A stretch of DNA of 64,000 bases, from positions 7,874,001 through 7,938,000 of the forward strand of contig JANJGN010000039.1 in NCBI GenBank assembly GCA_026770705.1, written 5' to 3'. This document shows positions 21,525 through 59,405 of the stretch, in pieces (within the stretch, counting starts at the first letter, position 1; each line of letters starts with the position of its first letter). The translations under genes and the position numbers were made by a program. Source of the stretch: Isurus oxyrinchus (taxonomy: Eukaryota). The notes beneath the pieces are model-generated. The model searched no databases. It worked only from the letters and a program-made list of their open reading frames with translations, and was not told the origin of the DNA.

Positions 21525-22804
21525 GTAAGTTCATTTTTATACTCCCAGACTAAACATGCATTTCTGTGTATCTTTTCATTCATTGGATGTCGGCGAAATG
21601 ATCTAGGGCAGCATTTATTGTCCATCCCTAGTTGGCCTTGAGAATGTTGTTTGAGCTGTTTTTGAACTGCTGCAGGCTGTGCGGTTCAGGTGCAGCCACA
21701 TTGCTGTTTGCTGCTGGGTGCGAGTTTTACAGCTTTAAGCCAGTGTGAAGGAAGGGCGATACATTTCCAAAGCAGGACGATGAATGGTTTGGAGGGGATC
21801 GGAGACTCCAGCTGGTGGCGTTCACATGTCTATATGGCCCAATGATGTCCACATAGGTTTGGAAGGTTATCTGCAAGAACTCATTGCTGCAAAAGTTTGC
21901 AGCTTTTATTTGTTCCCTGCGATCAATTCTCTGCTGCCAGTTTGACTCTGATATTCACCTTTATTGACGGTGGAATCTCCTCAGATCCTTTAGTGATTTC
22001 ATTCTGTTTCTTTGTTTTCTGAAATGTATTTAAAGGAGACGAAAATTTGTATGTTTCAGCTCATCTTCCATTCCATCTTGGTTATCCATCTCGGCAGGAA
22101 ACACATTTTCTCATAAAGATGGGGGAATTGATCCTTCACCAGATAGAAGCCATTTACTATCCTACACTTGCGGCTATCGGTGTTCCTGGTAAGAGACCAT
22201 GCAAGGCAATTAGACATTTAAATTGTTTGTTTGTTGCTTCTAAACGATGTTTCTGATCTCTGAAAAGTGCTAACTTACGTTTGGAGAGTTTGGCGTGTTT
22301 ATTTAATCCTAACATCACCTGATTGCTTAATGCTGATTCATCTTTTACAACATGTTCTCTCGCGGTGATATCTTATTCATTAATTTGGGAATGATTTCAA
22401 TGTATGGGCTCTGCAATAAATATCATAACCAAATTCAATCCAAGTTTGAAATGATAGATGCCACAACCTGTGATATTCAATGAAGAGGAACTTCGCATTT
22501 TGCAACATTCATCTTGACATAATTGAAAGCGCTTGCAACTGATTTTCATCTGCTTTTCACTATTACAAGCAACGGACACCCCATCAAACTACTTAGCTTT
22601 TAATGCAGCGATCTTTAACGGATCAGCGTGCAGTGAAGGTAGCTGGAAATTGGGGTAAAAAACAAAGCTTGATGTGGTTAAAACATTGCGACATCTTACT
22701 TACTTGTATCTCGAAAGACATTTATTTCTTTAGTCTCGTTTCTTTCTTTTGACCACCTTCCTGGCTTTTTTTATTTAGACCACCTTACTGGCTTTAAATG
22801 GAAA

Positions 22805-24480
22805 GATAGAATCAAGGAAACATGGAAAGCAGAAGCAGGAGTGGGCCATTCTGCCATTCGAGCCTTCTGCACTATTCATCAAAACAATAACTAATCATAC
22901 ATTTCAACAACCTGCTCCGCTTTCTCCCAAAATAGTTTGATCCCTTGCTGCCTAAATGTTATATTTAACTCCTTCTTGAAAACATACAACATTTTCGCCT
23001 CAACTACTTTCTGTGGTCGCTGATTCCTCAGGCTCACCATTCTGTGGGTGAGAACTTTGCGCTCATCTCAGTACTAAATGGTACATCCCGTGCTCTCAAA
23101 CTATGACCGCTGGTTCTGGACTGCCCCACATTCGGAACATCCTTCCTGCCCTGTCTAGTCCTGTTAGAATCTTGTAGGTTTCAAGGAGATCCCCTCTCAA
23201 AATTTTGAACTCCAGCGAAAATAATCCTAACTGTCAAAATATCTCCTCATGTGTCAGCCCCACCATCCCAGGAATCAGTCTGGAAAACCATTGCTGCACT
23301 CCCTCTACAGGAAGAACATCCTTCCTCAGATAAGGAGGTCAAAATTGTGCATAATATTCGAGGTGTGGTTCACAAATGCCCTGCATATTTGCAGCACGAT
23401 TTTCCTGCTCCTACACACGAATCCTGTCACTATGAAAGCCAACATTTGCCTTCTTTACTGGCTGCTGCAACTGCATGCTTACCATTTGCGACTGGTGTAC
23501 AAAGACACCCAGGTCTAGTTGCATAATTCCCTCTCTCAATTTATAGACATTCAGATAATAATCTTCCATTCTGCTTCTTCTACCCAAGTGGATAACATCA
23601 CATTTATCCACATCGTAGTCCAACTGCCACGAATTTGCCCGCTCATTCAGCATGTCCAAATCTCAATGAAGTATCTCGGCAAATCTCTCACTGCACACCC
23701 TCCCACCCAGCATTGTGTCATCTACAAATTTGGAGATGATACATTTAGCTCCCCCATTTAAATCATCAATATTTTGAATTGTCGTGGTGCCAGCAACAAA
23801 CTCTGCGGTACCCACAAAATCGTCACACCCTGCCATTCGGATAACATACCCATTTATTCTATTCCTTGTTTCCTGTCCTCCAACCAGTATTCTATCCATC
23901 TCAATACAGTACCCCCAATCCCATGCGCTATCGTTTTTACTCCTTAGGGCTATGTAGGGCTTTGGCGAAAACATTCTGAAATGTGAAGTAAACCAGATCC
24001 ACTGGTTCCCCCTCATCAACTCTACTCATTACTTCCTCGAAAAATTCCTGTAGCTTTGCCAAGCTGTATCATGCTGACTCTGTCCGATTCTGCCACTGTT
24101 TTCCAAGTGTTGAGCTGTTAAATCTTTTACACTGGACTCTAGAATTTTCCCAACTACCAAGGTCAGGCTGACTGGTCTATAAATCCTTCTTTACCCTCTG
24201 ACCCCCTTCTTAACTGGAGGAGTTACATTACCTACCCTCCAATTTGTTGGAAGTGCTCCAGAGTCTATTGAATCACGGAAGATCAATGCATCCACTATTT
24301 CTAGGGCCACTTCCTTTGGTATTCAGGGATGTAGATGATCTGGTCCGGGGGATTTATCGGAATTCAATTATATCAGTTTATTCAGCACAATCACCCTACT
24401 AATTTTGTTTCTGTTTTCAGTTCCTCCCTCTCACTAAACTCTTTGCTCCCAAAAACACTTGGTATGTTTTTTCTGTCCTC
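22805..24480 (-). mobile_element. CR1 LINE RT and 3' fragment in the intron of GPCR copy 1
   Basis: ISKFVDDTMLGG, WQLDYDVDKCDVIHLGR and a CR1 3'UTR. No counterpart was seen in the right arm. Confidence 0.85.
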
Positions 24481-25589
24481 GACATTGCTCCACTACTCAA
24501 GTAAACCATGGCTGAAACCATGGCTCCAATATATTCTTTTACACAATTTCATATCTCTGGGTCCATTAAATACTTAGAATTCAGTTCATCGCTTCCCTGA
24601 ACAGACTCAAGGACTGAGCCTCCAAAGAACATCATCCTCTGAATGAATTGGATCCTCTTCATCTCAATCCAAAAGGACATAGCTCATCTTCTGCGTGTGT
24701 TTGTCCTGTTTTCAGGCACGCCCCCAAAAAGGGGAACATCCATCCTGCATCTGTTCCAATAAAACCCTATCATATCATTGTTTGCTTCCGTGAGATAACT
24801 TCTAATTTAGCATGTCTCCAGAGAGCGCAGGCTCACTCTCGTCAATATCTCCACATGGGGCTATATCATTAAATCCCAGTATTTCAAGGCATTCGTTTGG
24901 TGAACTCTCCTTGCTACATCACATCACCTCGTAACTCCCCACACACTTCACCACTGACAGTCCGTGGCAAGTTTTTATTTTTCACTTTGTTAAAAAGACC
25001 AATAGTCTATATGACACTTCATTTGCGCTAATGCCCATAAGTCCCAATGTTTGGTCGCCAGTATTCAATTCCTTCATCAGTGTAGTTTCATCGATACATT
25101 GCAAAGTACTGGAGTTCCTCGTTGATAGTTGCAGAACTAACATTCACACGTCCTCACTCCCTGAATAAGGTGTTGCCTAAATGAAGAAATTGGACAGAAA
25201 GTAACATGTTCACAGCATTAGCATTTGTGAATAACCATCCATAACGAAAATGGAAATCTCAAATTGCTTTTGAAGGGCTGTGCCATTGCACAATCCCCTA
25301 CAATCGGCATCTCAGCATCGTGATTAAATTAACCGTGCCGGCCATGTTAAAACAGGCCTAGAAGTGTAGGTTAGACTTTTCAATATCTGCGGAGAGCCTC
25401 TCAACTTTTAACTCCTCAGAATCTGACCACCATCAACTGACCATCTGGTATTCGTATGATACATTGAGATTGCCTGGATGATTTGAGAACAACCAATATA
25501 CTCTGTACCAATGGAACAACGTTTACTGCTTGATCAGCACCACAACAGTCACCATAAACATTCTACACGGGAATTGCAGCGTTGGGGAT

Positions 25590-27900
25590 ACATCAGGCTT
25601 TAGGTTAGACATTCTGTTTGTGCACAACTCTGCTCAGTGCCTCATGAAAACCCATTTTTAAGTTGCAGCTCTGGCTGAAATTTACGCCATTAAGCACAAT
25701 CAGAGTGCCATAAAACGCGATGGAGGCAATTCCCAATGCGAAGGTGTACTTCTTCTGCACAAGAACTGTTGGTGGTCAATCCTATCATTAACGTTGTGGG
25801 CACATGGACCTGCGTGTGGGTTGGCGGAGTGAGTTCAGTTAGCGTCTTCCGCCTTGTATGTTCCCTGACCACCTGCCAAAGACCCGGCCTAGCAGTTATA
25901 TTTACGGCTAGACCAGCTCAGCATTATTTGTGCTGCTGGAAATCTCTTGGTCATAAACATTGAAATCCCCTATGTAGAGCATAGTTTTTCCATGGAACCC
26001 CAAATCTCCCTCTATTGATGATCACTCATTCATCAGCTGAGGGGAACGGTAGGTAACATAAAGGAGGGGGTATTCCATGCCAATGTTTCAGCTGATGCCA
26101 TGAGATTTCATTGAATTACCAAGCCGTTTTAACGCTAAGACAATTTTTTCACACTCAACGTAAATAGTTTGAAGCAATGGCATTCAGGGAAGCAAAAAGT
26201 CTATTGGGCGATGCCCAGAAATTGGGTGGAAAATTCACATTTTACATCACGTTATTTACTGAGATTTTGTCTGATGATTGGAGATGAACGTTGAAAGCAG
26301 TAAGAAAAATTATTCAAATAAAGATAAATAGGTTGAATACTTTTGGTGACAGAATGCGTATCAGAACCACAGGCTGCTTTGTCCTGGATTAATTCCATGT
26401 TAGTTAATGTGGTTGGAGCAGAACTAATCCAGACAATGTAGTGCATTCTATCACACTCCTGATTTGCCCCTTGAAATGAAGGCTTTGCAGAAGGAGAGGG
26501 TGATTTCCTCCCAGCGGGATTCTCAGGTGCTGATGTGCCCTTCTAGTCACAGTTTCTGCTCAATGATATTTCTGAGGATACTGGAACTGGAGGATTAAGC
26601 AATCGTAATGGCATTAAATTTTAAGGATATTTTCATTGAAACTCTGATGGCGTCGATGGCCATTGCCTGTCAATTATGTGGAGTGAATATTACTCGTCAG
26701 TTTTCAGCACCGACCTGGACATTGCTGAGGCCTTTTTACACATGGGCACGGAATTCTGTTAAGTCGAGAATGGTGCTGAAGTTTGAGCATTCATCAGCGG
26801 GCGTCAATCCATCCGCACCTCCACCCACGTCTACCCCTCCCAACACACCTTCACCACAATAATCCCCCTTCTGTGATATTGATGGATAGACTTTCAACGA
26901 TAAAGAAGATGAAGATGGTACGGAACAGGACTCTAGTGCGAGGATCTCGTGCAATGATGTAATGAGGCTGAGAGGTACCATCTGCAAATAAAAACATTTA
27001 ATTGTGCTAGGTATTATTCCATTTATTGGAGGCTTTTCCCGCTTATTCTTATTGACCCCGATTTCGTTAGGGATCTTTGAGACCATATCCTGTCGATTAT
27101 CTTGATATGCAGCACAGGCTATCTCCCATCACGTCATGAGTTCTCTGTGTTTGATTCAAGACTGAACTAATAGCTGGGGATCATACAAAACACAAAATTA
27201 GCTTCACTGGGTAGCTTACTGTCGAGTAAATGGCAATTTCAACACTCTACATTACTCTTTCAATTGTTTTGCTAATGATCAAGAGTAAGTGGGTGGGCCA
27301 GAAATTGGATTTTTGTGTATGCCTTGCTTTTGGGGAACTACATACCTCTGCTTTTCTGTTTCACATGTTCGCTAAAATGCCAGTATTATAGCTGTACAAC
27401 TCCAGCTTGGCTCGGATGGCTTGTTGAGAGGCCCTGGTCTCCCACCTTATTGGTGGAAACTTACAGGAACCGCAGCCTCAGCATAATCTAGTCCCATCAG
27501 TCGTTTCATAATATCACGTACTGTGCATCGTATTGGCTGAAGGCTGGTATCTCAGATGCTGTCATCCTCAAGAGGAGGCCGGAAAGTTTCATCCACTTGT
27601 TACTTGAGGCTGAATGTGGCTGCAAATATTTTAGCAATATCTTTGCAGTGATGACCTGGGCTCAACAATCATTGCTGATGAAGATATGGATGGAGAGTCC
27701 TCAGGCAGTGATTTGTTCAATTTCCCATCACCATTCAAAACAGTATGTGACAGCCCTTCAGAGCTGAGATTTGGATATTGGTTTGCCTGTCAATTGAGCC
27801 CTGCTTCCCGTATTTTACTTGCAAGTTGTCCTGCCTTGGAGCTGCATCTGGTAAGCCTCCATTATCCACTACTTCAAGTTCAACTCTAGGCATATGACAT
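25590..27900 (-). mobile_element. Rearranged old LINE remnants in the intron of GPCR copy 1
   Basis: WISSAPTTLTNMELIQDKAAC remnant. Mirrored, including internal junctions, at about 55200-57600. Confidence 0.7.
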
Positions 27901-30900
27901 ATGTCGGCAAAGGTCCTTCCTCAGTACCTCTGAGTACGTGGCCTTGAACAATTGGACGAACAAGGGCAGAATCCGCATGGAAGCAGGATTACTTGCAAGC
28001 TCCTTTCCAAGTCACACATCAGCATGACTTGGAAATACATTAGCTTCTTTTCCCGACTCACACTGGATCAACTGCTGGAACTCCCTAGCTCGTAGCACAG
28101 TGTGTCCATCTGCATCATATGGACTGCAAAACTGTAAAAAAAAATCCCTTTCAAGGAGAATTTTTGAAAACGAATATACGCTCATCTTGTCAATATATCG
28201 ATTGAAAGGAAATAATGCATCATGCCGAATCTATGCTTATTGCGCCCTTGTGCATTAAAATGACGGCCCTTTCTGTTTCTTTCGTGTAGGGTAGACTAAG
28301 ATTAAAAATAACATTCTTATGTTGCTTTATTTTTTTCCAGTATTCTCGTCCCTAAGTGAGGACCTGTATGTTCAATCGCTCGTGAAAATCTAAGCCTGTA
28401 ACCAAATAATTGGCCGAATTATTTGACCACAAATCGCCGACCCCGCCCCCTATCGAACTGTATTCACAGCTTCATAATCTGCCGCCTGAGGTCCTGGTTC
28501 AAACTGCCGATTGGACGTGGACCCCACTTTGCATCTCTCATTGCCCCCTCCCTCTTGCGAAGGGCACATTGCTGTTAAACTGATAAGGCAAAAGGAAGAC
28601 ACTCAGTCGGTTTGTGCTTTATCCGATTGGGTCTTTGCAATAACGACATCAGAGGAACGTAAACCAAAGTGCAGTGCACCTGATCTATGTTTCTTTTCCA
28701 AATTACAAATCAATAACGGGTCAAGAAAAAATTGCAGATGCATACCTAAATGGATAATTCCAACAAAAAAAAATATATTATATATCCTATCGGCAGGAAA
28801 CTATATGATAATGTATTTGCTATTGGTACACTTAATTTGATAGCTAACATAACGAATAATTTCTTTGCTAGTTTAATATTCAATTTGGCAGATAACTGAG
28901 TGCTTCATTCAATGTGTATTTCAACGTTTTATTTGGAGGTACATTCAGGAAGTGCATTGACAATTTATTGATTTTTTTTTTGTAATTGATTTTATTCTAA
29001 TTTCGGCTCCTTAAATACATAATTGTGTACATTACTGAGTTTTTGTTAAGGGGTTGCATCTTGACAGTGCTGGCCAAGACAATTTGGGTGATGATATATT
29101 GGTTAAACATCTTTATATAAATCAAAACAGTGAAATGCTGGAATGCAAAATACAACTTAATTATCTCAGTGTAAATTCATGGTGTTGTACTGATACGAAT
29201 ATTGTTTTGCTCAGCTGATACCTTTATAGGGATAGGGCAACTAATGTCAACCTTCATTTTTGTCAACATTTCTCTCGGATTGTAGTTAAACCAAATGGGC
29301 ATTGATTTTCAAATGCTTCCCTCCATTCCAGTACAGCCTACACGGGCATCAGGAAATGAATTTTCAATTAATGCCCATCAACCAGTCTTTGCAAGTCTGC
29401 TTATAATTAGCTGTTGCAGTTCTCATCAAGTCAATGAACGATTGATGCTTGTTTTCGAGTTTGAAAATTTTGAATGAAAGGCAGCAGCTGCCACATGAGC
29501 TGTGGATGTTGCATGAAGAGACCGCTTTTTATTTGTGTGGTCGAAGCTTATCAACTTTCAAGCTGAGACAGAAATATGAAAATCTGTTTACCTTTCTCCG
29601 AATAATTCTTCTGATTGCTTTAAAAAATTAGTTTAAAGCATTAATCAGCAACTGAATTAAATAATCTTGTTCAAAATGTTGCTTCATCATCCCATCGTCA
29701 GTCTTGCTCCATTGCATTGTTGCTATCCTAAATGTCAAAAACTTTACATCATTCTGCACCATTTTGTATAGCCTTAAAAAGCACTTGGTACTTCAATGAA
29801 CACCCTATTCATTCTTCCCTCCATTGTGAAAATGTGAATTTTCCATTCCGTAAACTGTGTCCCCTGTGATTGACCAAAGATTTCAGTCTAAAAGATATTC
29901 TGCACGGTTACCAGATCCATGATTTCCGATCTTACAACACAGCCACCAGGGCTCCACGCAAAATCTCAATTCAATTCAAATTCAGACAATTTCAATTACT
30001 TACTTTGGATATTAGTGAAAGCTCGAGTTCTATGCTTTTTTAAAAGGTACATAATAATTTGACGATCGTATGCAATAAAGACAGCATTTCCAGTAGCAAC
30101 AAGTTGGTTCCTTCGGTTTAACTGAAACATGTGATATTTCGAAAAGCATATGGTGGTTAATTAAGTAAGCAACATGAATTATATTATGCAGCCCTGACTA
30201 GCCAAGGCTCAAGGCAATTTCGCTTGATTTATACCATTATTGATTGTAATCAGTAATTATACGGAGTGTTTTAACTGTATTCTCCTATGTAATAACTTTT
30301 CGTTAAATTAATTCACTAAATTATGAAAAGTTTCCTGAATTTTGAAAAATAAATATGAATGTTCCTAAATCATTTTAAAATCTGTGGCTGTTCTGAGACG
30401 GCCAATCTAAAATTAAAGTAGCTACAGAGGGTTTTATTATAACTATGGTTTTGTTCAGAGTTACTTCGATAACATAAGGTCGTCAACAATTCACAAACTC
30501 ACACTTCTAATCATATCTTTGTTTTCCAAATGCGTTACTGACTCAAGTCAATTTGTCCATCACTGTCAATATCTCTCTGGATCTTCTACACTTGGTGTCC
30601 AACAGGAATCTGTGTTCAGCTTCATGTATCGAAAACGTTCACAATGATGCGGCTCTTGAGATGAATAGAAATATTTTCTGACTTTTCAGCAAACAAGTGC
30701 TTTGTTCTTCATCCGATCAAAGAAGGGAACAAATCTCCGGACTCCTGAGTAGCGAAAAGCGGACTTACACTTCGTTTGAATAACATTTTCAATTGCTCAT
30801 TCGCCATATTGTGGGAATCACTCTGATTCTCATTGCCTCTCCATTTTACGATATCTATGCAATGTACTTAAAAACTAGCCTGCCCAGCAAGAAACATGGC

Positions 30901-33900
30901 GCCACACAACACCTCATGAGGGCCAATATATGCTCCCCACTCAATCTGAGCAGTCCTTTTAGCAAAATAACTTTATCCTAGTTGGCTATTAAACTGCCCC
31001 CATCCAGCCTGCCCAGCCTGTGTAGCAACTTTGATTTAGTCTTGCTGCTATGAAGCAGCGATACATTCCGCCTGAACCAGAACTTCACGATGCTCAGCGT
31101 GCATATCAATCTTGCAACACTCAAACTGTTTTAAACTAGCTGACTGATCGGCCCTCAACTTGCAGATACACTTCACCCTGCGATCTGCATAAGCATTTTA
31201 CCTTATTTAGATTGTCATTCACCACCACCGTGAGGACGTCCCGGGGAATGTTCACTCAGCCTTGTATATTTTGGTCCCTCTTTGTAGTCTATTCACTATT
31301 ATACCTTGTCCTGTTCAATCTCAACCTTACCCTCCCAAGTGTTCCGAGTACATTCGTGCCTCTCGGCACATTTTGCATTCAAGATGTCAGCCTTGTTGCA
31401 CAGTACCCCTTCCAAGAACTTATTGCAAGACTCTATATTGCGTCCTCTGCCCAGATCCCGTTGCACCTTCACACATCAATTGGCTCTTTAACACCTGCCA
31501 TATCACACTTAAAAGTTACCATGCCAAGGCATTTTTGTGACTTCAAATTCTTCACATTCTTGCTCAACAGGCTCAACAGCTGCCCAGTCTTAATGGAGGA
31601 TTTTTCTACCAGAAAACGAATAATCAATGAACGTTTCCCATCCGTGTGCACTTGTATAAGGTTCAGTCCATGTTTAACACACGTTTCTCTCATGAAATAC
31701 ATGAAATGATGCAAAAGTAAGCGAAATTTGTTTTGAGCACCCTTTGCTGCCATCAGAAAAAAACTTTTTCACATTTGTCGAATATTTCATGTTTTGTCTC
31801 TACCTCTCTTACAATGAATACTGTTGCAATTGTGATTCTTTCCCGAGGAAAGTGTGGTCTCTCGAAATGTGTTACATGCTATATGATGGCCATGGCAGCA
31901 ACTGACCTCCTGGTCGTATGTACTGACGTAATACTTACGAGTACAGTGGATATTTATTGCCCCAGTTCATTCTTCACAATGACCCCTGTGTGCTGTCTAA
32001 CACTAACACTGAGTTATGTATTCACATCAGCCTCTGTCTGGCTAACAGTGATGTTCACATTCGATCGTTTTGTGGCCATATGTTGAGAGAAGCGTAAAAA
32101 AATATTGTACAGAGAAAACGGCAGCTGCTGTCATAACGGTGGTATCTGTGTTGAGCTGCTTGATAAGCATTCCTTGGTATTTTGCATATGAACCTGAAAA
32201 TATAGTGGACAATGTTAGGTTGTGTCCTAAAACAGACATTTATCATTTCTGCTGGATGGGCCGCATTTGACTTGTTTACCCTTACCTTAACCCCCTGTGT
32301 TCCATTCATTATAATTTTGTTGCTAAATGTGTTGATCTTTAGGCGTATTTTACTGACCAATAAAGTCCGCAGGGGCCTCCATGTTTGCAGCAATGGCGAG
32401 CATCACAAGGATTCAGAGATAGAAAGCCGAAGAAAATCCATGATTTTACTTTTCAGTATATCCAGCAGTTTTATATTGTTGTGGGCCATTCTGGTTGTAT
32501 ATTTTATGTCTTTGCATACAACAATCATTTCATATTCTGGTCTTAATAAGCTTGAATCAGTTGCATATATGCTTGAACTTCTCAATTGCTGCACAAATAC
32601 ATTCATTTACGTTTTGACACAGGCTAAGTTTAGGGAGGAGCTGAAGAATGGGATGTGATACCTTAAGAAATTGTTCGTAAAATTATTCAAATCATAATTA
32701 CAGCTGAAAATGCATTGACATACTCAGGAGAACACACACGTGTACCTTGAAGCAACTCATATTAGCAAAGTGCTTGAGATGATGCTTATACTCTCTGGAT
32801 AAAATTGTATACCTACTGTTTTATAATATAAGCTCAAATTGTACTCTTTTTCACCATATTATGTAGTCAAAGATGAATGTGGTGTGTAATAATATTAATC
32901 AAACATTCTAAAGAGTGCCGAATATTATTGCAGAGCTGGAAAGAGTGAATTGAGGCTCGAGGCTCTGACCGTATAATTGGAACAGTTGTTCATTTCTGTC
33001 AGACACCACATCAAACATCACCAGCTGTTTCACCCATGACATGAAAACATTTAACAAGAAAAGGAAACGTCACATGTTTCCTGCAATATCTCTTCAAATC
33101 CAAAGAGTAATTAGGGTGTATTTGTAGAACAATTTTTATGACATCTGGCACCCTCCAAATCTCAGAGAGTTACACAAGGAACTGCTTCTCAGTTTTCCTT
33201 ATAGCTCACATGATTAAAAAAATGAAAGCCTGATCAACATTTATTTTGTGAAAGGATGCGCCTTTGCAGGGGTGATCACAAGGTGAAATGAATCATTGAC
33301 CCCCCGCCCACAACACCCCCCACCCCCCACCCGCCATGATCCATAGGGCAGAGAGATTGTTCGATGCATTGGATTAAAAACGTTCAGATCCGATTTTCTT
33401 GCGAATCATTTGAAAGTGCGTAAAGCTGATGTATTTCTTTCATGATCACAGGGTGTCCCTCCTCCCCAAATGCTCATTCACAAAACTCTCTACTTCCTTT
33501 TCTCTGGTTATTTCACAAACGCTCAGCAAATGATTGTTATCATAATTCTCATTTTATCCTTTTAAAATTATTAATTTGAAACCTATTCTCAATCTACCGA
33601 GTGATGCTTCAGCCAGACATCTGCACGATTTCCCAGCTGTCAGTCTTCCACTTGCATGTTTTCCGAGCATCAACTTGCTCCTTTCTATTGCTGTGCACAT
33701 TGAATATGAACAAATACTATGTACTTCTTCTCATTTAAATATTCATAGCAATTCTTCTCATTTACTTTACTTAAAAGCAGTTCGAAGAATGTAATTTGAT
33801 GCTGGTTACAGCACAAAGCAGACCATTGGACAGCCGTGTCCCCTTTCTCCCCCTCAAGGATCAAGCAATCTGGCAAAAAAAAAACCCTCTGCTTTCTATG

Positions 33901-34349
33901 ATGATCAGATCATTCGACTTTTCCAGAAAATAACCCAACATCGTCTTGAACATTGCTAGTTGACTTTTCGAATCATCCCGCCAAATAATTTACCAGAAGA
34001 GCTGCCAATTAACATGGCGAATGACATTTGTGGTGAAATGGAAATCTATGCCTGTCACCCTGGCAGACATTCACCTTGTTAAAATTTGCACTCCTTCATG
34101 TCATGAAGGGCATTTCTGTCAAGGACAAAAACAGTTATTTTATCCCTAATTGTTTTTAGCACAAGGTGATCATGTGCAGACTTTACGAAGAGCTACAGTG
34201 TATGTGCAATCTTCGTACAGGCTGCATAGGGCCTGGAAATATGAATAGCTACGGTACGCACATCGAGCAATATTTTCTAAATATTTGCTCTGATATTTCG
34301 ACATCTGCACTTTCTAAATCTCCAAATTGAATGCTCAGCTCTCCGTCCT

Positions 34350-35320
34350 TTTAGTTCCTAAGGGATCTTGCGTTCGTCAGGGCAGTGTGCTAGGTCCAGC
34401 CATCTTCAGCTGCTTCAACAATTACCTTCCCCCAATCATAAGGTTAGAACTGGGGCTATTCGCTGAAGATTGCTGAAGGTGCAACGCCATTCTTGGCTCG
34501 TGAGGTAATGAAGCAGTCCGTGATCAAATTGAGAATGAACTAGACAACGCACGCCCTTTAGCTCACAAGTGGAAAACAACTTTCACGAGCCAGGCAATGA
34601 CCATCATAAAAAGATACAATCTATCTATTGCCCCTTGGAATTCAATGTCATTACCACGGATGAATTGCACACTATCAACTTTATTACGATTCTCACTGGC
34701 AAGAATTGGACCTTGAATAATCATATAAACACTGTGCATACCCATGCAGACCAGAGGTTAATAATGCAGCGCGAAACTTCTTTCTTGGCTCCCCAAACCC
34801 GTCCTAACTGGACAAGGCACAAGATCGCTCTCCACTTACTTGGAAGTTTGCAGCTCCAGCAACACGAACGAAGCAGAGCGCCATCCAGGACAAAGCAGCC
34901 TCCTTAATTAGCACCACTTTCACAAATATTCACTCCCTCCACCACCGACGCAATTGTAGCAGCAGTGTCCGCCACCTAAAAACATGCACGGCAAAAATTC
35001 ACCAAAGCTCCTTAGACAACCCCTTCCCAGTCCAACACCGCTTACACCCGTAGTGCAAGAACAGCGGGTGCACGGGAAAACCTGCAAGTTGAAGTTTAGC
35101 TTCAAGACACCCACCATTCTGACGGAAAATATATCGCCGTCCCTTCACTGTCTCTGTGTCAAAACCAGGGAACTCCCTTCGAATCATTGTTGTGGTTGTA
35201 CGGACAGCACAGAAACTCCAGCAGTTCAAAAGTAAACCCACCACCAGCTTCGCAAGGGAACAAATCAATAAATGCAAGCCAAACAAATGGCGCCCAAATC
35301 TCGTAAAAGAATAATAATGA
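34350..35320 (+). mobile_element. LINE RT C-terminal and 3' fragment, shared with the right arm
   Basis: QGSVLGP..FSCF.N.LP remnant and KNWTLNNHINT. Same 5' junction as the copy at 47210-48150. Confidence 0.8.
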
Positions 35321-47209: not shown

Positions 47210-48150
47210 TATTATTGATTAAGGGGGTTTTGGTGTCAATCACTCGCACAGCATTTATTGCCCAGACGTAGGTACCCTTGAGAATATAGTGGTCAGCTCC
47301 CTTCTTGAATCGCAGCAGGTAAGGGTACAACCATACTGCTCTTAGGGAAGGAGTTCCTGGAATTTGACCCAACTACAATGATGGAACAGGGATATCGTTT
47401 CAAACAGACTGGAGAGTAGCTTGGAGCGGAGCATCCAAATCGTTGTGCTCCCATGAATCTGCTGCCCATTATTCTTCTAGATGGTTTCGGTCGTCGGTTT
47501 GGACTGTAATGTCAAAGGTGACTTTGGAAATTCAGGCAGTGGCACCTTTCAGATAGTACACACTGCTGCTATTGTTCGTCGGTTGTGGAGGGAGTCAACG
47601 TTTATTGATGTGATGTCAATCTAAGACTGATTTATCCCAGATGTTGTCACGCTTCTAGGCTGCTTTGGAGCTGCACACACCCAAGCAAGTGGGGAGTATA
47701 TCATCACAATCCTATCATCTGGCTTGTAGATAGTGGAATGGAATTAGGGAGTCACCGCAGGATTCCTAGCCTCTGAACTGCAATTGTAGACGTTCTGTTT
47801 ATATGGCCAATCCAGTTCTGTTTCTGGTTAATGATAAACATTACAAAGCTGATAGTGCGAACTTCGGCGATGATAATGCCATTGAATGTTGGCGTTCGGT
47901 GGTTTGATTTTCTCTTTTGGAGATATTCATTGCCTGGTGTCAATGTCCTTTGCCACTCCTCAGCGAAAGTCTGAACATGCTGCATTTGGCCATGGACAAC
48001 CTCATGATTTCAGGAGTCACGTATTGTGTTCAGCATTGCGTAATCATCAGCGAACATTCCCAATTCCGACCTTAAGATGGTGAGAAGCTCATTGATGATG
48101 GAGCTAAACATCATTGAGCTTCGGACATTACCCTGAGGAACTGATGTTCC
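47210..48150 (-). mobile_element. LINE 3' fragment, paralogous to 34350-35320
   Basis: NWIGHINRTSTIAVQRLGILR. Identical flanking context GCTCAGCTC..GTCCTTTTAGTTCCT. Confidence 0.8.
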
Positions 48151-49786
48151 CTCAGGAACTAAAAGGACTGGGAGCTGAGCAGTGGAGATATATATTTAGA
48201 AAGTGCACGTGGCGAAAAGCCAGAGCTAACATTTAGAAAAGAGTGGGAGCTGAGCCGGCGGTGTGGGCATTTAGTAATTCAGGCCCTAAGCAGCCAGTGT
48301 GAAGATGTCAGAAACACTGTAGCTGCTCGAAAAGACGGATCACGTATGCTTTTCTCTAAGAGCAATTAAAGATTGGCAACAATTGTTTTTCTTCCCAACT
48401 ATGCCTCCCATGCCATGACCGAACCTGTCGTGCTTTTAATGTTCATTTATTCAAGGAAAGCGGTTGTAGTTTTCTATTTATTGCCACGTTAATTGGCAGT
48501 TGGTCTGGACAATCCTTTTACTGGGTGATTAGGGTGGTTAATTAGGAATCGTCAAGAAGATTTTGGATTAACATCATTGAAACGTGAATGACCCACATAA
48601 CAGGGAGAAGCCGGAGGAGTGGCTCCCGGCTGTATCTTCCTTAAGTGAGACAGTAAGGAAAGGAGGGGCCAAATGATCTGCTTCTGTGCTGTAGACTTTC
48701 TATGGTTGTATTCTACTAACGGCATTTAAGTTAAGTAAATGATAAGAATATTCGACGAGAAGAATTACATTATAATTTTTCTCATTCAATATGCGTAGGT
48801 ATACAGGAAAGGAAATTAATGGTAGGGCCATGTGTGATCAGACGTTTCTTGGCTGGGAATTCGTGCAGATACCTGGCTGAAGCGTCACTCGCTATATTGA
48901 TGAGTGGATATCAAGTCATACATATGAAAATATTCGAGAATTATGATACCAGCCATTTGGTGGCTGTGTGTGTGTGAAAAGACCGGATAACATGAAACAG
49001 AGAGTGTTGTGAATGAGCATGTGGGGAGGAAGTAACCTCATTAATCATGGAAAAAACAAGTATGAGCTATTTGCGCTTTCAAATGAATCGGAGGGAAATC
49101 GGATTTAAAAGTTCAGAATCCAATATATGGAGTCGTCTCTCAGTTAAACGGATCATGGTAATGAGTGATCAATTGCGCCACTGCCCGTCCTTTCCCAAAC
49201 CACGTGATGACCAGGCCTTCCTTGTTTTAATCATGTGAGGTAAATGGAAATCTGAGAAGCAGCTCATTGCGCAACTGTTTGATATTTGGAGGGTGCCAGA
49301 CTTCGTGAAACATGTTCTGAAAATTCCCCCTATGTACTAATTGCCCCAGAATAGACGTCGTAGGAAATTTGCCAAGTTTGTCTATGTTACATTTGTCGAG
49401 TTGTCATGATCCAGCTGCTGATGTTTGGGTCTTCTCTTGTTGATCAGAACCACTGTTCCAATGAACACAAGGCTGTCAAAACCTGGCGTCACAATTCATC
49501 CTTTCAAACTCTGCAACGCTAACAGGAGCTGTTCAGTATTATTATTCTTATTTATTACTATTATCACAACTTACAATTCACCATTGATTACTGTATACTG
49601 TGAAAAAGAGTTCATTATACTACAACAGAGCATTTTAAGTAGGATACCTTTTTTAGTAAGATAGTAAACGTTGTTACAAGTGTTATTCTAAAATGAATTA
49701 TTTCAGGGCACGATGTTTATGTCCGCCTGTAAAGGTCAATGGGTTATCCACTGTAATTTGCATAGTTTTGCGCTCAGTTTCACAAG

Positions 49787-50640
49787 TTACTGCATTCCGC
49801 TCTTCAGCTCCTCCCTAAACCTAGCCTGTGTCAGCACATAAATGAATGCATTTGTGCAGCAACTGAGGTCCCCTAGCATGAATCCAACTGACTTAAGCTC
49901 ATTTGCCTCAGAATGTGACGTGAGTGTTACATGCAGAGAGATAATATATATAACAGGAGTTGTCCAGAGCAATATATAGCTGCCAGTTATACTGAACAGT
50001 AAAATAATGGACTTTCTTCGGCTTTCAATTTCAGAGTCCTTGAGATGTTCTCCATTACTGCAACCGTGGAGACCTCTGCGAACTTTACTGGCTGCCAAAA
50101 TACGTCTCACCGTCAAAACATTTAGCAACAAGATTAGAATGAATGGAACACATGGGGTCAAGGTAAGGGTAAAAAATTCAAATGCGGCCCACTCAGCAGA
50201 AATGAAAAATGTATATTTTGGGACACAACCACGATTTACATTGTCCATTATATACACAGGTTCATATGCAATGTACCATGGAATGTTTATCAAAAATCTC
50301 AAAACACTCACCACGGTTATGACAGCTACCGCTGTTGTTTCGGTGCAATATTTTTTTCGCAGCTTCTTACAACATATCGCCACAAAATGATCGAAGGTGA
50401 ACACCACTGTTAACCACACAGAGGCTGATGTGACTACATAAATCAGTGTTACCGATAGATGGCACACTGTGCCCATGGTCAAGAATAAAATAGGAAAATA
50501 CATATCCAGCGTATTCTTCAGTATGACTTCAGCAAAAACAACCAGGAGATCTGACGCAGCAATGGCAATCATAAAGTGGGTAATACATTTGGAGAGGCCA
50601 CACTTTCTTCTGGAAAGGATCACAATCACAACAACATTAA
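49787..50640 (-). CDS. GPCR copy 2, main coding exon (TM1 end to helix 8)
   Basis: Open frame within ORF 49787..50680. The true start is the splice acceptor at 50641-42. Confidence 0.92.
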
Positions 50641-53600
50641 CTGTAAGAGAGGGATAGAGAGAGCAAGAGATAGACGACACAGATGAACATGATTAATTTC
50701 TTCCCGTTGCAGCACAGGACATTGCACTTGACCAAAATATGCACAGACTGCTTTCCGAGGTTAGCATGTTCTAAATGTTATCTGGACCTAGTGAAAGTAG
50801 ATAGAATAGGGAAACATCAATTTATGATTCGTCTTTTGAAAGGAACCTCTTCAACGTAAACTGGACAACTAATGATCAATAACGATTGAGATTGTTGAGG
50901 CCGAATGTGACCTGGACAATTTGAATGCAAACAAACAGCTGGGCATCGTGAATATTAAAAGGTAAATGAGAGGTGTAAAGAGTCAATTAACTTGTGTTGG
51001 CACAATGTGAAGTGAGAAGTGAATGGGCAAAATAGAATCTGGGCCATGTAGAGTTATACTCTGCAAGAGGTAGTGGTGCAATGCGTGTTGGGTGGTCTAT
51101 AAATGTGAATACGTAATTGGAAGGATTACTGTGCTGCAGGACTTACAGCTTGAAGGTAAAACATTGCCCAGTGGCACGAACATACTCTGAACGCTTGCGA
51201 TGGTAAAGATGGAATGATAAACACAGAGGAACACGCAATGGTCACTGAGCTACAAAAAAAGACCAGCATAGATTCCCAGGGAGAAGTTTTATTCGGAGAT
51301 AAGAGCTGATCAGTCATGTGTTTTAAGTCACATTATGTAACGTGAGATTGATTTGCTGGCTGGGCTTTGTGCACGATTATTTCAGGTGAATGCATCGCTA
51401 ATGTATTGCAGAAAGAATGAAGCAACATTGGTATGCAGAATGGGTGCAGTCAGTGCTGATCAAGAGGCCAGTTTATTAGCGGACTGGGAACGGAGATATT
51501 ACAATGAGATTGAGTGGGCAATATCTATTGGCCATAGGGGCACATATCTTGCAAATCAAAGTGAATGAGCAATTCAAAGATGCGATTCTAGTGAGGTTAT
51601 AACTACCGAGTAGACAGGACAGAGTTCCCATTATTTGAACGGTTGCAGAACTAATCACTTTGTTGCCGTAAGGGCAGTAGGGAGTCGATTGTGTCTCAAT
51701 GACAACATGCGTGATTTGAAAGGTGAAGCTTAAAATTGATTTTTTGGGGGGGCACCAAGTGCATAAAATTGCAATAAAGATTTACTATGATGGGCACAAG
51801 GATTTGAGCCTGTAGACTAACATATGTTCAAAAAAGTGAAATTACGAATTGTCGATTACCTGCCAATAAAGATCTAACTCCTAATACACTCATGTTTAAA
51901 TTAATATCGTCTACAGCTTGATTCACTTCAAATTGGCCAGGCTCGTAAAACGCATGAACCTTTGCATTATTTGTTAAAATGCATGTTTCTTTTTTTTCAA
52001 AATGCAGGAACCTTTTCCGAGAATTAGCGAAGTTATTCAATGCTGCATTGTTATACAGAAGATTAACTTCAGTCATTTATACCGATTGCTGATCAAGTTA
52101 AAGGATCTATATAAGTCAAGCGAAATTGACGTGAGCCTCAGGTAATCACGGTTGCATTATGATTTCTGTTGTTTACTTACTAATGTCCCATTTGCATTTT
52201 GAAGAAGAGGCTTTCTAAGTGAATATCACTGAACTAATGTGTAACTGCCAGGTATGTAATAACGTGATGTGCACGTTTATTAAATTATTTCCTGAATTTC
52301 AAAGCAAGTTAAATATCTCTAGCCTGAATTATTATCGGAAGTAAATAATCGGCTCGCTGCTGAAATTTTGTTTGTAGTTCTGATGGTGATGCAAAAGGAC
52401 AGGATGTCATGGCTCTGGCAACGGTGCAGAACAGCTTTCCGACTGAAATCTCCAGTCAGATTCGGCAGGCACAGATTAGGGAATGGAAAATGCACATTCT
52501 CAAAATTAGGGGATGAGTAGATAGAGAGTTATTTCAAGTACCAACTGGTTTCATGGCTATGCAACATGGTGTAGTCGGAAAGTAGATTTTTCGCGAACTT
52601 GAACTTAGGGAAACAACAATGCATTGAACATCTATAAACGGGGTGGTGAAGTAACATTTTGCATCATATTATTTCAGTAAGTTGTCGCTTTATGTTTCAG
52701 ATGAACTTTGAATGAAGTAAGGCGAATGAGTCGGATAAAGCTTTTTTAAAATTTTTGGATCTGATTAAAAGCTGGCAAGCTTTGACCACACAAACAAAGA
52801 AAATATCTATTTGCGTTACATACACAGCCCAGTTGGAAGCCTCCGATTCGCAAGTCTCTAACTCGAATGCAAGCGTCAAGCATTGAACGTCTTAATGGAG
52901 CTGTCAAAGCTAATCACAATCAGCCGTGAAAACGCCAGGCAATGGATAAAAATTAAAGTTTGATTTTCCGTGAACCATGTAGGATTCACTGGAAAAGCTG
53001 GAAGCATTATTAATCAAAGCTAATTTCACACAATTGCATCTTAAAATAAATGTCAAAAATGAAAATTGACCTTCATTTACCCGATAACTATTATGACTTG
53101 AGCAAACCATATATATATATATATATTCCTACAACGACATGAAATTAAACTGGGAGACATAATTATCCGTGTGCTATTGTGAATTATACAAAGACTGTTA
53201 GCCAATTTATCAGCACTTGAAACAGTACCGGCCAGCACTGTAAATAAGGAAACAGCTTAAAAACATTGTAACTGAAACAATTATATAATGAAGCAGCCAA
53301 TATTTGAACTCATTAATTATCAAAACTACTATCCAATAAATAATCAGTATACTTGCAGAATTTTCCTCCGAATTAAACGTTGAAATGCCCCAGGAATGAA
53401 CCCACCCAAATATCTGCCCAATGAAATAGTGACGTGTCCAAACCATTATCCACTACTTAGCTAACAAATTAAGTATACAGTCATCAAATATATTATCAAC
53501 ATTATTTCCTGCTAAATAAATTGGAGAAATGAACATGTATATATGCGACAGAATTACCCATTGCTCTCTGGAACTGCAATCTTCTTCTGACCTGTTAATG

Positions 53601-56600
53601 ATTTGCTGTTTGGGAAAAGGAACATGCAGCAGGTGCAGTGCACTTTGAAAAATGTGCCTCTTGATGTCGTTACTACAAACACCCGAGTCTCAGGAACTGC
53701 GGAGTTTCCTCCACCGTCCCAACTTTAACAGCAAATCGCAAAGTAATTACAAGATAACAATTTTCTATCGCATCTTTTGCATGCAAAACAGTTCCTGAAG
53801 GGCTAATTCATTTCAGTGAATTTGTGAATGTTGTGGCGAACGCACCAGAGAGTGTGATCCACTGAATTGTGTTCGTGGTTATGGCACATTGCTGCAGGCT
53901 CCATAGCAGCAGTTACATTAGAAAAGTGAGACAAATCCGTTGGTGCATTTTCAAAACGCAAATCGTGATTTAAAATCATAAAGAAATATTACATTAAGTA
54001 GACAGCGGCCTGGATTATACAATTATCGGCAGCGTGAGATGGAGAAATGTAAAATTAGCCGTTTTCCTATTCACCCTCCCTTAGACCACCTCCCCTTCCA
54101 CAAGTTATTTAAGTTCCCAAGGGAAGGAGGCATCGAGTGATGCAAAATGGGGTCCGCGTCCAATCGGCAGTGAAAGCCTGAACATTGTGCGGCAGAATGG
54201 AATGCTGTGAACAGAAAGTCGTTATAACTGAAAGCTCAAGACCACCTGCTCTCAGAAACTGTTTTTCCAAAAATATTTTTCATTGTAAGTTCAGGCAAGA
54301 AACAAAAAAGTGAAAAGTAAACATGAACGCGCTGTCACGTTCCCCAGCACAATCTGTTGCCACATTTAATCATGGTCCCGGGGCCTCTGTTCCGCAGGAT
54401 GGTTGTCTGATGGTAGGTGCCCAGGAACATTTTTTTTTCTCCCGTCTGGGCCACGGTTATTGCAAAGCACGAATCAAGAAATCATACCATTGTGTCTCTC
54501 ACAAACTCAATAACTTGCTAATTAGTAACTTTTAAAAGGTGGGCCCACCCGTTCTACATCTGCAACTGGGAGAGTCTTGTACCTGACGTCATTATACCCG
54601 ATGCATGTCATTGATCGTCGTGCGTATTCGGCATTTTTGAAGTGGGTGTAAGTTGGGGAGTGGGGGTTTTGGGCGGTGAGGTGAAGGGGGTGCGATTTTC
54701 AGACGAAAATTCCAGCCAATCTTTTTGGTTAAATATGTAATATTCAGGAGTGAATTCGAAATATGCGTTCTCCGTTAGGGGCCAGTGTTCTCCGAAATAA
54801 TCTACATTTAAACATGCATTTTGTAGTTAATCTTTGTTGAGCCGGACAATAGAAATAGCCAAAGCCGCGATTTCAATAGCAAAAAGACATCAATATTCAT
54901 AGATTCGTCATCATGCAACATTTTATTTCCTTTGATCATTTGTCAAGATTAGCACTTTTATTTCCGTTTGCTCTAACTCTTCCTGAAAATAAGGGTTTTA
55001 TAGTGCTGCAGTCCATGTGAAGCAGGTGCAGACAAAACGCTGCGAGCGATTGATTTCCAGGTTTTTGATCCAGTGACAATAAAGGAACGGTGATGTATCT
55101 GTAAGTCAGCTTGGTGCTTGACTCGGAAAGGATTTTTTAATTAATAGTGTTCCCATGCCTCTTCTGCTGTTGCCCTTCCAGGATTTTGAGGTCAAATGCA
55201 CAAATGAAGGAACGTTGCTGACATCTGCCCTATGTACAAAACAGCAGCAATCAAAGCTAACAACAGGGCTTAACCTGGTAAATTTCAAGCCCGGGGCTAC
55301 TTGCAAGCAAAACAGCGTAGTCAGCACGAGAAAGACAGGGCTCATTGATCCCCCTACCAAATAACGATAGCTCAGCTCTGAGGTCCTGTCACAATCACCT
55401 TTAATGGTGGTGGAAAATTCTGCACCTCACTTGTTCTCCACCAATATCCCCATCGACAATGAATGTGGAGCGCAGCACACCAGTGCATATACATGGCAGA
55501 AGAATTTGCAGCCACATTCACCCTGAAGTGACGGGTGGATGAACCATCCGGCCTCCTCTTACGGATGACAAGCATCACAGATGCCAGTCTTCATACGATG
55601 TGATTCTCAGCACTCGGATTTAAGGAATGACTGAAGGAACTGGATGATGAAGAGGGTATGGGTCCGTTTAGATAATGCCAATAGTACGGGAGATCACTGC
55701 TGCTGAATAAGCCTTCCTATCGATGCTGGTATGGTGCATCTAAACCTTTGGCCTCTATGCTGAATTTTGAGAATTTTCACAGGTATGCCTATCCACAAAT
55801 AATCACGACAAATCCAACCAATCTAAGGACAGCCCCATCAGCCTACATTTCATCAGGATCAATGTGATGAAAAGCATCATAGAAAATGCTTTCAATTGCC
55901 AAATACTCAGCAGCAAACTGCTCACTGACGCTCACTTTTTGCTTCGTGCGAGCTCCAACTCTCGGTTCGGCCTGCCTCCAAACATGTACACAGGTGCTTT
56001 ACTTATGAAATGAGGAGAGAGTGGCTGTGAATTATTACAGTACATCAGTTATCACACTGTGGTATCAAGGATGGGTATGAGAATTGTGGTCAATAAGAAC
56101 AAGGGGCAACTTCCCTACTGAGTGAACTCATACAAAGCAAAAAGGATTATTTTTTCATTTTTATTTTCTTTTGCAGGTGCATCATCTCAGCCCTATGAGA
56201 TAACTGGACGACAGACTAAGGGCAGTGTCCTGAAACCTCCCATCTTAAGCTGCTGCATCAATTATGTTCTCTCCATTTGAAACACAGTAGGAGGCTGGTG
56301 TAGTCGGGAGGGTGTGGGAAAGTGGGGGGAGGTTATATCCGCTGAAAATTGTTCAAAGTTCTGCACCGTTCACGACTCAACAGATGCTGATCAAATCCGT
56401 GCCCATGTGCATCAAGTCCTGGGCAACAGCCAGACTTGTGCTGAAAATGACAAGTAATATTCGCCCCCCAAAATTGACAGGAAATGACCATCTGCACCAA
56501 AAGAACATCCAACAAAATAACCTTGACATTTACTCGCCTTACCATCGCTTAAGCCCCCGTTTTCAATATCCTTTGACAAGCCATTGACAAGAATCTGTGA

Positions 56601-59405
56601 CTCGAAGGGCAGGTCAAAATCTGAAAATGCAGTGGTTAGCAATGCAACTCCTGGCTCTCCAAAACCTTTCCTCCATCTAAAATGCACAAATCAGGAATGT
56701 GATGAGATATACTACACCTGTCCAGATAATTTACGCTCCAGTAGAATTCAAGGATATTGACTTAACCCAGGACAAAGCAGAGTGCTTGACTTGCAATTAT
56801 TCCATAAATTTAATTATTTCAGCTGTTTATCCTCATCTGAATAACTCATCTCCCTGCTTTTAAAGTTCATACGAATCATCAGCAAACATCTGAGTGAAAT
56901 TATCTTATCTAAAACGTAATATATCCACCCAATTTCTCAGTACGCTCAATTCTATTACTGCTTTCCTAAATACCATTTTGCACCACTTTCAGCGTGCACC
57001 ATTTTTAATATCCTTCAGTACACCTGGTACTTAAGTGACATCTCGTGACATTACGTAACACATGGGCAATGAATGTCCCCTTCTGCTGACCAGCTCCCTT
57101 TCACCTCAGCAGATGAATCAATGATCATCAATGGCCGACGTTTTAGGGAGAGATAAGAAAAAAATGCTTTCCATCGGAGACCTGGAAGTCTGTGAGCAAG
57201 AGAGGATCGGTAGCATCAATAATGTCCGAGCTGGCAGAGTCATAAAGATAAATGCTAGACTAGGTCTTTGGCAGGTGGTCTGGGAACCAACCAGGTGCAA
57301 AATTCTAAGTGAATTCGCTCCACAAACCTACCACCACAGCTGCATCAGTCCTCTTAGGAATTGATATGAAGGACCACCACACGGCCTTGTACAGAGGAAT
57401 TCCGCCTTCACAATGGGGCTTCCCTCCATCGTATTGTGTGAGACAACCATTGTGCTATATTGGGTAGATTTCAACTGGATTAACAACTCAAAAGTGGGCA
57501 TTCACAAGGCACTGTGGTCCAATAGCTGCAGCTGATATGGGCACAACCGTAATTTGTAACACTAAGCCCAGTCTATCCCCCAACTCTGCAATTTTCATCT
57601 GGACTGTTTATGGTGATGTTTCTGATGCCAGTCAATCATTCTACTTTGCTCCTTTAGGGTAGCTCTGCGAGAAGGAATGTTCAACAAATTACTTATCACA
57701 TTACGGGGATTTAGTTGGGATTGTCCTCTTTGGTGACAGTGACGAGAATAATCCTCGCCTTTCTGGTGCATTGGCAAATGAAAAGTGATTTCACTGAAGC
57801 ATTCACCCTTTTTAAAAGTTTCGGTATTGTCGATATTGGATGGATCATTCCGCTGGCTGGTGTGTCTAAAAGTAGGAAAAGCAATATCAGAATAAGGGGA
57901 CTGCATTTGAGATTATGATGAGAAATAATCTCATCACTGAGGGAGGGGTAAATGTTCGAAATTATGTACTGCAACCGCGGCGGATGGGCAGACATTGAGT
58001 ATGTTGAAGGTGCCGATGAACCAATTTCTCTGTATTAAGCGCATCCAAAAATATGAGATAGCGCATGGAATATCGTGGAGACATTATTTCAGCCATGATA
58101 GACTTGAATAGTGGAGCACAATCGTGCGGCCAAATGATCAATTTCTACTGGTACTTCCTGTGCTCTTATGTCCTTCTGTCAGCGCCACCATGTAACGTGG
58201 AAATTTGAGTTTTCCAAAGCCACGGTGGATTCGGACATTATTTAGTATCAATCCACTGCAATTCTCAATGTTAGTAAGTAAGGTTCAGAAGCAGGGTTCA
58301 CAGCAGCAGGAAGTGTAGGGCTAGAAATTGAAATGAGCAGAATAATGAGAACCATATAGCTACCCAGGGAGCATAGCGGTTCCAAAATCGGATCACTTAT
58401 GGCTCAGGTAACCATCTGCGTGCTGAGATATTTGTTTCAATACTTATGTCCGGCTTCAGTTCTTGAGGACAAAAGTCTCAGCTAATGCACCTTTGCCATA
58501 GTCAAGTTGTTCTGTACTATCGGATGTAATAAATTTCAGAACAGATGTCAAACCGTTTCACAGGGTAAACGTCAAAGATTCCATACCCCTATGTCGAAGA
58601 TCGAGATTGTCGTGACCCCTTGTGTCCCGACCACTATTTACACGTCTATTAAAGCCCACAATACGGATAAATTGGTCATTGTCATCTTGCTGCTTGTGGA
58701 AGCTTCCCGACCACAAATTGCCTGTCCCCTTCAGTGACTACACTACATGGAAATTCATTAAGGTGGTCGATAAATGAGGATGTAGAAATGCATGTATTTC
58801 AATAGACAAGTGACTAAGACATCGGAATGTCTTCAGCACACAGGGTAATCTGTTTCAGCCAGACTTCCAGATATCCTCTCTGTATACAGATTTGTAAAAG
58901 TATCGCTGTGGTAATAAGTATGTGATTTGACAGGGATTCAGTTCCTTTAAATATTGGTAAATGCATGAAAACCATTGGCAACGGCTTCAAGAATTTCAAG
59001 CAGAATTTTGCAGAATGCGAATTTGCTTCTGCACAGATTTTCACAGATTATGTTTTCTACAAGTTCATACTCTGTTTGCACTTGATAATGATAGTTATTG
59101 CAGAGCCCACCCTGTTACATGACATTCCGTAAAGCAAGAATAAGGTGTCAGCAGTGGAGACCACGGAGTTTAAGATAGAGCAACAGGAAGAAATCTGTTA
59201 ACGTTGTGGTTAAACATACATCCCTCCTTTGATGACTCCCCAACAGTACAGAAACAAATCGATGAAATCGAACAGGCGTTTGAGAAGAACGTGAACATCC
59301 ATTTATTCGGCTAAAGATTGCATTTAGGCTCTTACCAGGAACACCAATGGCCGCGAGAATAGGATAGTAAATGGCTTCTATCTGCCGAAGTATCAGTTCT
59401 CCCAT
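49787..59405 (-). CDS. GPR139-like rhodopsin-class GPCR, 307 aa; complement(join(49787..50640,59336..59405))
   Basis: The 70-nt exon MGELILRQIEAIYYPILAAIGVP|GTAAG is followed by an 8695-nt phase-1 intron and a ctctcttacAG acceptor. The 854-nt exon has ASDLLV, SVWLTVVFTFDHFVAIC, IPW, PCVPF, LLW and NAFIY..RFREEL. The YY..L..G.P|xN start, SVWLTV and the missing NPxxY proline resemble GPR139/142. True orthology was not established. Confidence 0.88.
55200..57600 (+). mobile_element. Rearranged old LINE remnants in the intron of GPCR copy 2
   Basis: Mirror of 25590-27900, e.g. GACCACCTGCCAAAGACC at 25867 vs the reverse complement at 57263. Confidence 0.7.
58400..58800 (+). mobile_element. Deu-type SINE, degraded
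   Basis: The core TGGTCATTGTCATCTTGCTGCTTGTGGAAGCTT...CAAATTG...CAGTGACTACACT. Confidence 0.6.
59336..59405 (-). CDS. GPCR copy 2, first coding exon
   Basis: ATG at 59405 and donor GTAAG at 59335. 21/23 aa identical to 22119-22188. Confidence 0.9.

Follow-up and report, generated by a model that had tools for sequence, protein, structure and literature searches.

The window analysed here is the whole stretch of 64,000 nucleotides from Isurus oxyrinchus (assembly GCA_026770705.1, contig JANJGN010000039.1, positions 7,874,001 to 7,938,000), and it contains two receptor genes, copy A and copy B. Both are in decay and belong to a very large family of two-exon class A (rhodopsin-like) G-protein-coupled receptors (GPCRs). 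With some two to three thousand copies in the genome, this family evolves by birth-and-death through segmental duplication. Positive selection was detected in two of three subfamilies, in the strongest of them mostly on the extracellular loops. These features suggest, with a probability that we put at about one in two, that the family is a repertoire of sensors for many external chemical cues. A fuller version, in which the sequences represent an undescribed chemoreceptor family of cartilaginous fish with about 1,000 working genes, an independent origin from the GPR139/GPR142 lineage and the size of a mammalian odorant receptor (OR) repertoire, is proposed more tentatively. The two copies in the window are themselves unremarkable casualties of turnover, and the interest lies in the family.

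The genome searched comprises 5,558 contigs with a total of 4.98 Gb. Among 7,531 first-look candidates, 137 scored in a protein search, every one with E < 1e-86. An exact 32-base motif from transmembrane helix (TM) 3 has 1,045 genome matches (control 0) and recovers just 30 of the 81 members known from the protein search. A looser motif, fitted so as to catch 81/81 of these members at one mismatch, has 2,848 matches at that setting (control 1), and an independent motif of exon 1 and its donor has 1,837 (control 0). All of the new loci fetched from the looser list (16/16) are family members, a check that covers zero-mismatch matches only and not the one-mismatch ones. The first-pass annotation of the window had called for such a census, and the copies are in the thousands, not few. 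Intactness was assessed on 60 loci drawn, with tandem arrays thinned, from the 100 exact TM3 matches at the head of the list: exon 2 is open through TM7 in 36/60, and an open exon 2 with an AG acceptor and a tail is present in 33/60 (55%, 95% confidence interval 42-68%). The assembly may hold about 450 to 1,900 potentially coding members, a range that refers to exon 2 only and includes haplotype duplicates. A sample of 156 intact frames, biased toward close relatives, contains no fewer than 41 lineages that share less than 80% identity. No description of the family was found in the GPR139/GPR142 and shark receptor literature, in which subscription papers or supplements could hold one.

The block of DNA that carries copies A and B in the window recurs on contig C56 at 94-99% identity and on C39 at 5.54-5.59 Mb at 90-98%, non-coding DNA included. 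The C56 block has an A copy that is open over the aligned part and a B copy with both defects of copy B of the window, and the C39 block has an intact A and a broken B. It may be that the stretch at 99% is allelic. Clustered copies, many pseudogenes and repeated duplication with differential loss were all observed, as the birth-and-death process proposed in the first-pass annotation predicts. Family copies whose motif sequences are nearly identical form regular tandem arrays on C34 at 9.8-10.1 Mb, with a spacing of ~15-22 kb, and on C21 at 83.3-85.7 Mb, with a spacing of tens to hundreds of kb.

Exon 2 matches the Pfam 7tm_1 profile with 67.3 bits (cut-off 30.5), and a close intact relative was modelled as a seven-helix bundle with a pLDDT of 77.7. 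The fold matches of this model are class A receptors, among which GPR139 is at Foldseek rank 36 and is not singled out. The class A motifs D2.50, R3.50, P5.50, W6.48, N7.49 and Y7.53 are conserved in the family, copy B being without R3.50. A profile built from the family only gave GPR139 as its top match in the PDB with 69.5 bits (next 62.3), and among 32 receptors of the genome it gave 77.8 and 70.9 bits for GPR139 and GPR142 and at most 39.6 for the 30 others, which are mostly amine, somatostatin and chemokine types, a limited outgroup sampling. These two receptors were found by a motif search that returned one GPR139 (L086), one GPR142 (L087) and one family member. Exon 2 of L086 is located on C15 at ~1.455 Mb and that of L087 on C22 at ~11.81 Mb; the two are 55% identical and share with the family a phase-1 acceptor directly ahead of N1.50. 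Family representatives are 19-28% identical to GPR139/GPR142 and 36-88% identical among themselves. In a tree (LG+G4) 17 family representatives form one clade and GPR139+GPR142 another, each with support of 100/99, and the family clade joins GPR139+GPR142 at 100/100, a result that carries a long-branch warning and rests on a limited set of outgroups. The sequence comparison thus places the family as the sister clade to GPR139+GPR142. The first-pass annotation had called the genes GPR139 paralogues, which does not hold in the strict sense, as GPR139 and GPR142 group together with the family outside. An orthologue of GPR139 is ruled out by an identity of 21-28%, by the position outside GPR139+GPR142 and by the presence of the genome's own GPR139, L086.

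The Srw profile (PF10324), tried as a route to GPR139/GPR142, is not specific here. It has five genome matches, one of which is a family member at 38.8 bits, and it picked up instead four loci (L031, L032, L033 and L035) that we take to be galanin-type receptor exons. The L031 protein, on the small contig C577, is the same as the L032 protein on C22, and L031 is likely an assembly duplicate. The first and second intracellular loops (ICL1 and ICL2) of the family, for example in L003, feature nearly invariant cysteines at positions 13, 18, 89, 90 and 98 of alignment A2. Nearly invariant cysteines in the cytoplasmic loops are unusual in class A receptors, and these may form a putative lipidation or metal site.

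Copies A and B are identical at 220/307 residues overall, with a pairwise ratio of nonsynonymous to synonymous substitution rates (dN/dS) of 0.26. The first-pass annotation had described them as conserved inside and variable outside. When the inner and outer membrane halves of exon 2 are fixed from an AlphaFold model, the inner half is identical at 117/146 residues and the outer half at 81/132 (Fisher p=0.0009), with dN/dS of 0.15 and 0.51, respectively, so this description is sound. The hand counts behind it were all reproduced: 21/23 for exon 1, exactly and with six synonymous-only codons, 24/26 for the ICL3 window, 9/19 for the window at the first extracellular loop (ECL1) and 15/34 for TM6-ECL3-TM7, the last being the lowest of six alignment registers tried (range 15-17). 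As a contrast the hand-picked windows are weak evidence alone, because they were chosen after looking and two of the three are within chance. Shuffles of the identity vector gave at most 9/19 in 82% and at least 24/26 in 28% of cases, and the 15/34 level, the unusual one, in 3.5%. Pseudogene decay was ruled out as the source of the outer excess, because copy A differs evenly from its intact sister L189 (19/19, 26/26 and 30/34 identical in the same three windows ECL1, ICL3 and TM6-TM7; dN/dS of 0.85 in the inner and 0.68 in the outer half) and the intact pair L189 and L003 keeps the excess (inner 118/148 vs outer 84/134 identical, p=0.002). Across 41 representatives less than 80% identical, the column identity is 0.64 in the inner and 0.41 in the outer half. 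Variable loops alone were rejected as a sensory signature, since class A paralogues have them in general: the identity of the loops is 0.38-0.50 in the somatostatin, adrenergic, serotonin, dopamine and GPR139/142 paralogue sets. The features that distinguish the family are its pocket variation and positive selection, not variable loops alone.

Codon models (F3x4, fixed tree) were applied to intact genes only, after removal of near-duplicates above 96%. In S1, the subfamily of the window (26 genes), twice the log-likelihood difference (2dL) is 40.6 for M2a vs M1a and 36.1 for M8 vs M8a, omega is 0.45 in the inner and 0.69 in the outer half, and the sites under selection are 3.26, 7.43 and another in the cytoplasmic part of TM5. 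In S2 (16 genes, the distant L145 dropped) the corresponding values of 2dL are 180.6 and 169.6, the selected class has an omega of 4.6 and contains 8% of the codons, and 16/17 sites are in the outer half, on ECL1, ECL2, ECL3 or the helix tops. Eight null simulations per set reached 6.6 and 2.8 as their largest values. With separate trees for each third of the gene, S2 is significant in 3/3 and S1 in 2/3. The pocket was defined as 25 positions from a generic class A list and was expressed as the ratio of pocket identity to inner-TM identity, which is 0.76 in S1, 0.90 in S2, 0.71 in S3 and 0.40 among deep representatives, compared with 0.90-1.11 in seven ordinary paralogue sets and 0.80 in chemokine receptors. 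These ratios and the loop sites of S2 indicate that S1 and S3 vary the pocket while S2 varies the loops. Selected and diversified ligand-facing residues, as looked for in a chemosensory repertoire, were found in two of the three subfamilies. The first-pass annotation had also asked for site-wise dN/dS, which is non-uniform along the protein, and its proposal of ligand-side diversification agrees with the positive selection on S1 and S2 and with the variable pocket. Of the findings that it had named as speaking against its proposal, namely few copies, uniform dN/dS and pseudogene decay, none was observed.

At least one family member is spliced, in a run (X11) that is likely RNA, because an X11 contig runs from the end of exon 1 directly into exon 2, the joined form has no genome match at two mismatches, and the intron of the closest genomic locus, L149, is uncovered. 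L149 has an intron acceptor at the junction point, and X11 contigs cover its exon 2 at ~97% identity and leave the adjacent unique intron uncovered. The transcript may come from a sister copy of L149 or from another individual. L149 (783-1581, minus strand) has DQF at the DRY position. A search with exon 2 of copy B listed no RNA run that contains it. Four runs gave no contig at least 95% alike to this exon, and one of them gave none at all, a result that is uninformative either way. Less similar family-like contigs are present in X9, X14, X13 and X7, and X10 and X12 have none on copy B; short high-depth X10 contigs were disregarded as they sit on the pyrimidine tract of the acceptor.

In a repertoire of chemical sensors, the constant inner face (D2.50, DRF, N5.58, N7.49, Y7.53 and the basic TM6 end) would couple all members to one G-protein route, and differing outer vestibules would read differing ligands, in a family that turns over by segmental duplication. 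The selection on all three extracellular loops of S2 suggests that its ligands may be peptides or other larger molecules and not free amino acids only. Several points weigh against the sensory proposal. Positive selection was not detected in S3 (26 genes, 2dL about 0). In S1 only 3-4 sites pass, one of them in the cytoplasmic half, the middle third of the gene is without a selection signal, and the inner-half omega of 0.45 is relaxed. The codon models are our own implementation, with a fixed topology and naive empirical Bayes, and gene conversion, for which the separate analysis of each third of the gene was the only check, can inflate site tests. Clustering at 90% identity reduces the 156 intact frames to 60, as many copies are near-identical segmental duplicates. 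The RNA runs carry no tissue record, and X11 was classed as RNA by guess. Finally, the deep pocket of S2 equals that of ordinary sets in conservation and chemokine receptors reach 0.80, so that immune receptors would show the pattern just as well.

An immune or barrier-tissue repertoire like the MRGPR, FPR or chemokine-type receptors, which would detect microbial or damage peptides or whose loops would evade pathogen binding, is rather unlikely. An arms race would be in keeping with the omega of ~4-4.6 on ECL1, ECL2 and ECL3 of S2 and the conservation of its deep pocket. The N-terminus is minimal, as in MRGPRs, the pocket ratio is near that of the genome's chemokine receptors, and family-like contigs in 5/7 runs from three studies give a weak hint of broad presence. 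The repertoire is, however, far larger than the known immune GPCR families, which number in the tens, and is nearer to the odorant receptor families. Genomic drift, in which unstable segmental duplications carry the genes along, purifying selection maintains a small functional core and the remainder decays, is improbable: it does not predict an omega above 1 focused on extracellular loops, the 41 or more lineages below 80% identity among 156 sampled frames, or an outer excess that is also found between intact genes. It would fit the ~45% of sampled loci that are broken, the dead or damaged state of both copies in the window, the duplication of entire multi-kilobase blocks at 90-99% identity and the inner-half omega of 0.39-0.45 in two subfamilies, and assembly duplicates may inflate part of the count.

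Additional receptors for aromatic amino acids, redundant with GPR139/GPR142, would be very improbable. The activation of GPR139 by Trp/Phe is reported to need F3x33, H5x43, W6x48 and N7x38 (PMC5430874), and at these columns copy B has Tyr, Thr, Trp and Phe. GPR139 is the best solved-structure match of the family, W6.48 is retained in 35/41 representatives and position 3.33 is Tyr or Phe in 32/41. Against such a role, the His column is His in 17/41 and the Asn column is Asn in 10/41, the subfamily of copy B having neither, R6.51 is not among the six commonest family residues at its column, and the genome retains its own GPR139 and GPR142. As further differences from these two receptors, C3.25 is retained in 40/41 representatives and is absent from both the GPR139 and the GPR142 orthologue, and P6.50 is not among the six commonest family residues.

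GPR139 and GPR142 are described as class A orphan receptors that L-Trp and L-Phe activate (PDB 7VUG, 9M42; PMC7318219, PMC5430874), and human GPR139 is reported to have two exons (PMC7318219). The family resembles them as its top PDB and genome profile matches and in the phase-1 intron ahead of N1.50; it differs in having thousands of copies against one match each, in forming a separate clade, in the largely replaced pocket residues and in C3.25, which only the family keeps. GPR210A/B, reported by Rinne et al. (PMC6504862) as an orphan adjoining GPR139/142 in gar, teleosts and coelacanth, is likewise an orphan lineage beside GPR139/142, in bony fishes, and is a candidate low-copy orthologue of the family, set beside it by description only. 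It differs in being reported as three low-copy subtypes, and the main text on GPR210 makes no mention of sharks or cartilaginous fish (PMC6504862). In size the family is comparable to the 1,948 ORs reported for the elephant (PMC11979771). It shares with OR, TAAR, ORA/V1R, T2R and V2R receptors the clusters, the many pseudogenes, the short N-terminus, the constant inner face and the variable pocket, but it has another ancestry and two coding exons. The MRGPR and FPR families resemble the present family as lineage-specific expansions that started from a class A ancestor outside olfaction and whose extracellular parts are under selection; they belong to an unrelated branch, and their gene numbers are lower by one to two orders of magnitude.

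The olfactory repertoires known from sharks are tiny, with 2 OR, 6 OR-like and 32 V2R genes reported for the catshark (PMC11979771), and sharks are the textbook case of a keen sense of smell with few receptors. About a thousand intact genes with selected outer surfaces would rank among the largest vertebrate GPCR families. If the family is sensory, the paradox of keen smell with few receptors becomes directly testable, and if it is immune, the oldest jawed lineage would have a repertoire of innate receptors that has gone unrecognised.

The two receptor genes of the window are oriented tail to tail on the arms of an old inverted duplication, which are 64-68% identical in DNA, and no third family copy was found within the window.

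Table. Receptor gene parts and duplication arms in the window
Feature	Position	Strand	Remark
Copy A exon 1	22119..22188	+	start codon, very short N-terminus, first half of TM1
Copy A exon 1 donor	22189	+	phase-1 GT
Copy A intron	22189..31814	+	acceptor 31813-31814 is AA, not AG
Copy A exon 2	31815..32697	+	pseudogene
Copy B exon 1	59336..59405	-	phase-1 GT donor at 59335
Copy B intron	50641..59335	-	GT-AG intact
Copy B exon 2	49787..50640	-	open frame, likely damaged
Left arm of old inverted duplication	20655..34731 (about)	.	bears copy A
Right arm of old inverted duplication	47796..60886 (about)	.	bears copy B

Copy A is dead: its acceptor is lost, and exon 2 has two stops (32084-32086 and 32656-32658, the latter before the old stop at 32695-32697) and two frameshifting deletions (2 nt near 32094 and 5 nt near 32217). 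The death is recent, as the synonymous divergence (dS) from the intact sister L189, which is located elsewhere on the same contig, is only 0.03-0.04. Copy B has a coding frame of 307 codons including exon 1 and is likely damaged, since position 3.50 is His (50389-50387), which turns DRF into DHF, and its tail ends earlier than in its closest relatives, at a stop at 49789-49787. Among 176 open family exon-2 frames, the motif at the DRY position is DRF in 158, DRY in 5, DHF in 3, DQF in 2 and DRC in 1, with 7 unparsed. The first-pass annotation had recognised one copy as a pseudogene, which is right for copy A, with the damage to copy B in addition. It had also described a very short N-terminus and tail. 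The N-terminus is real and family-wide, exon 1 encoding 21-26 residues counted from the last Met in 26/30 family loci, and no N-glycosylation sequon was found in exon 1 of the 30/30 loci examined. The very short tails are due to the premature stops in both copies, and the tails of close relatives are ~17 residues longer.

Between the two receptor genes, at 37846-38298 on the minus strand, the window contains a reverse-transcriptase fragment (Pfam RVT_1, 32.8 bits) that is a portion of a decayed element of the long interspersed nuclear element (LINE) type. Seven further repeat-like frames of the window gave no Pfam match. A tandem array at 4089-4343 features a 33/65-base period with ~75% matches and may resemble the tail of a shark short interspersed nuclear element (SINE).

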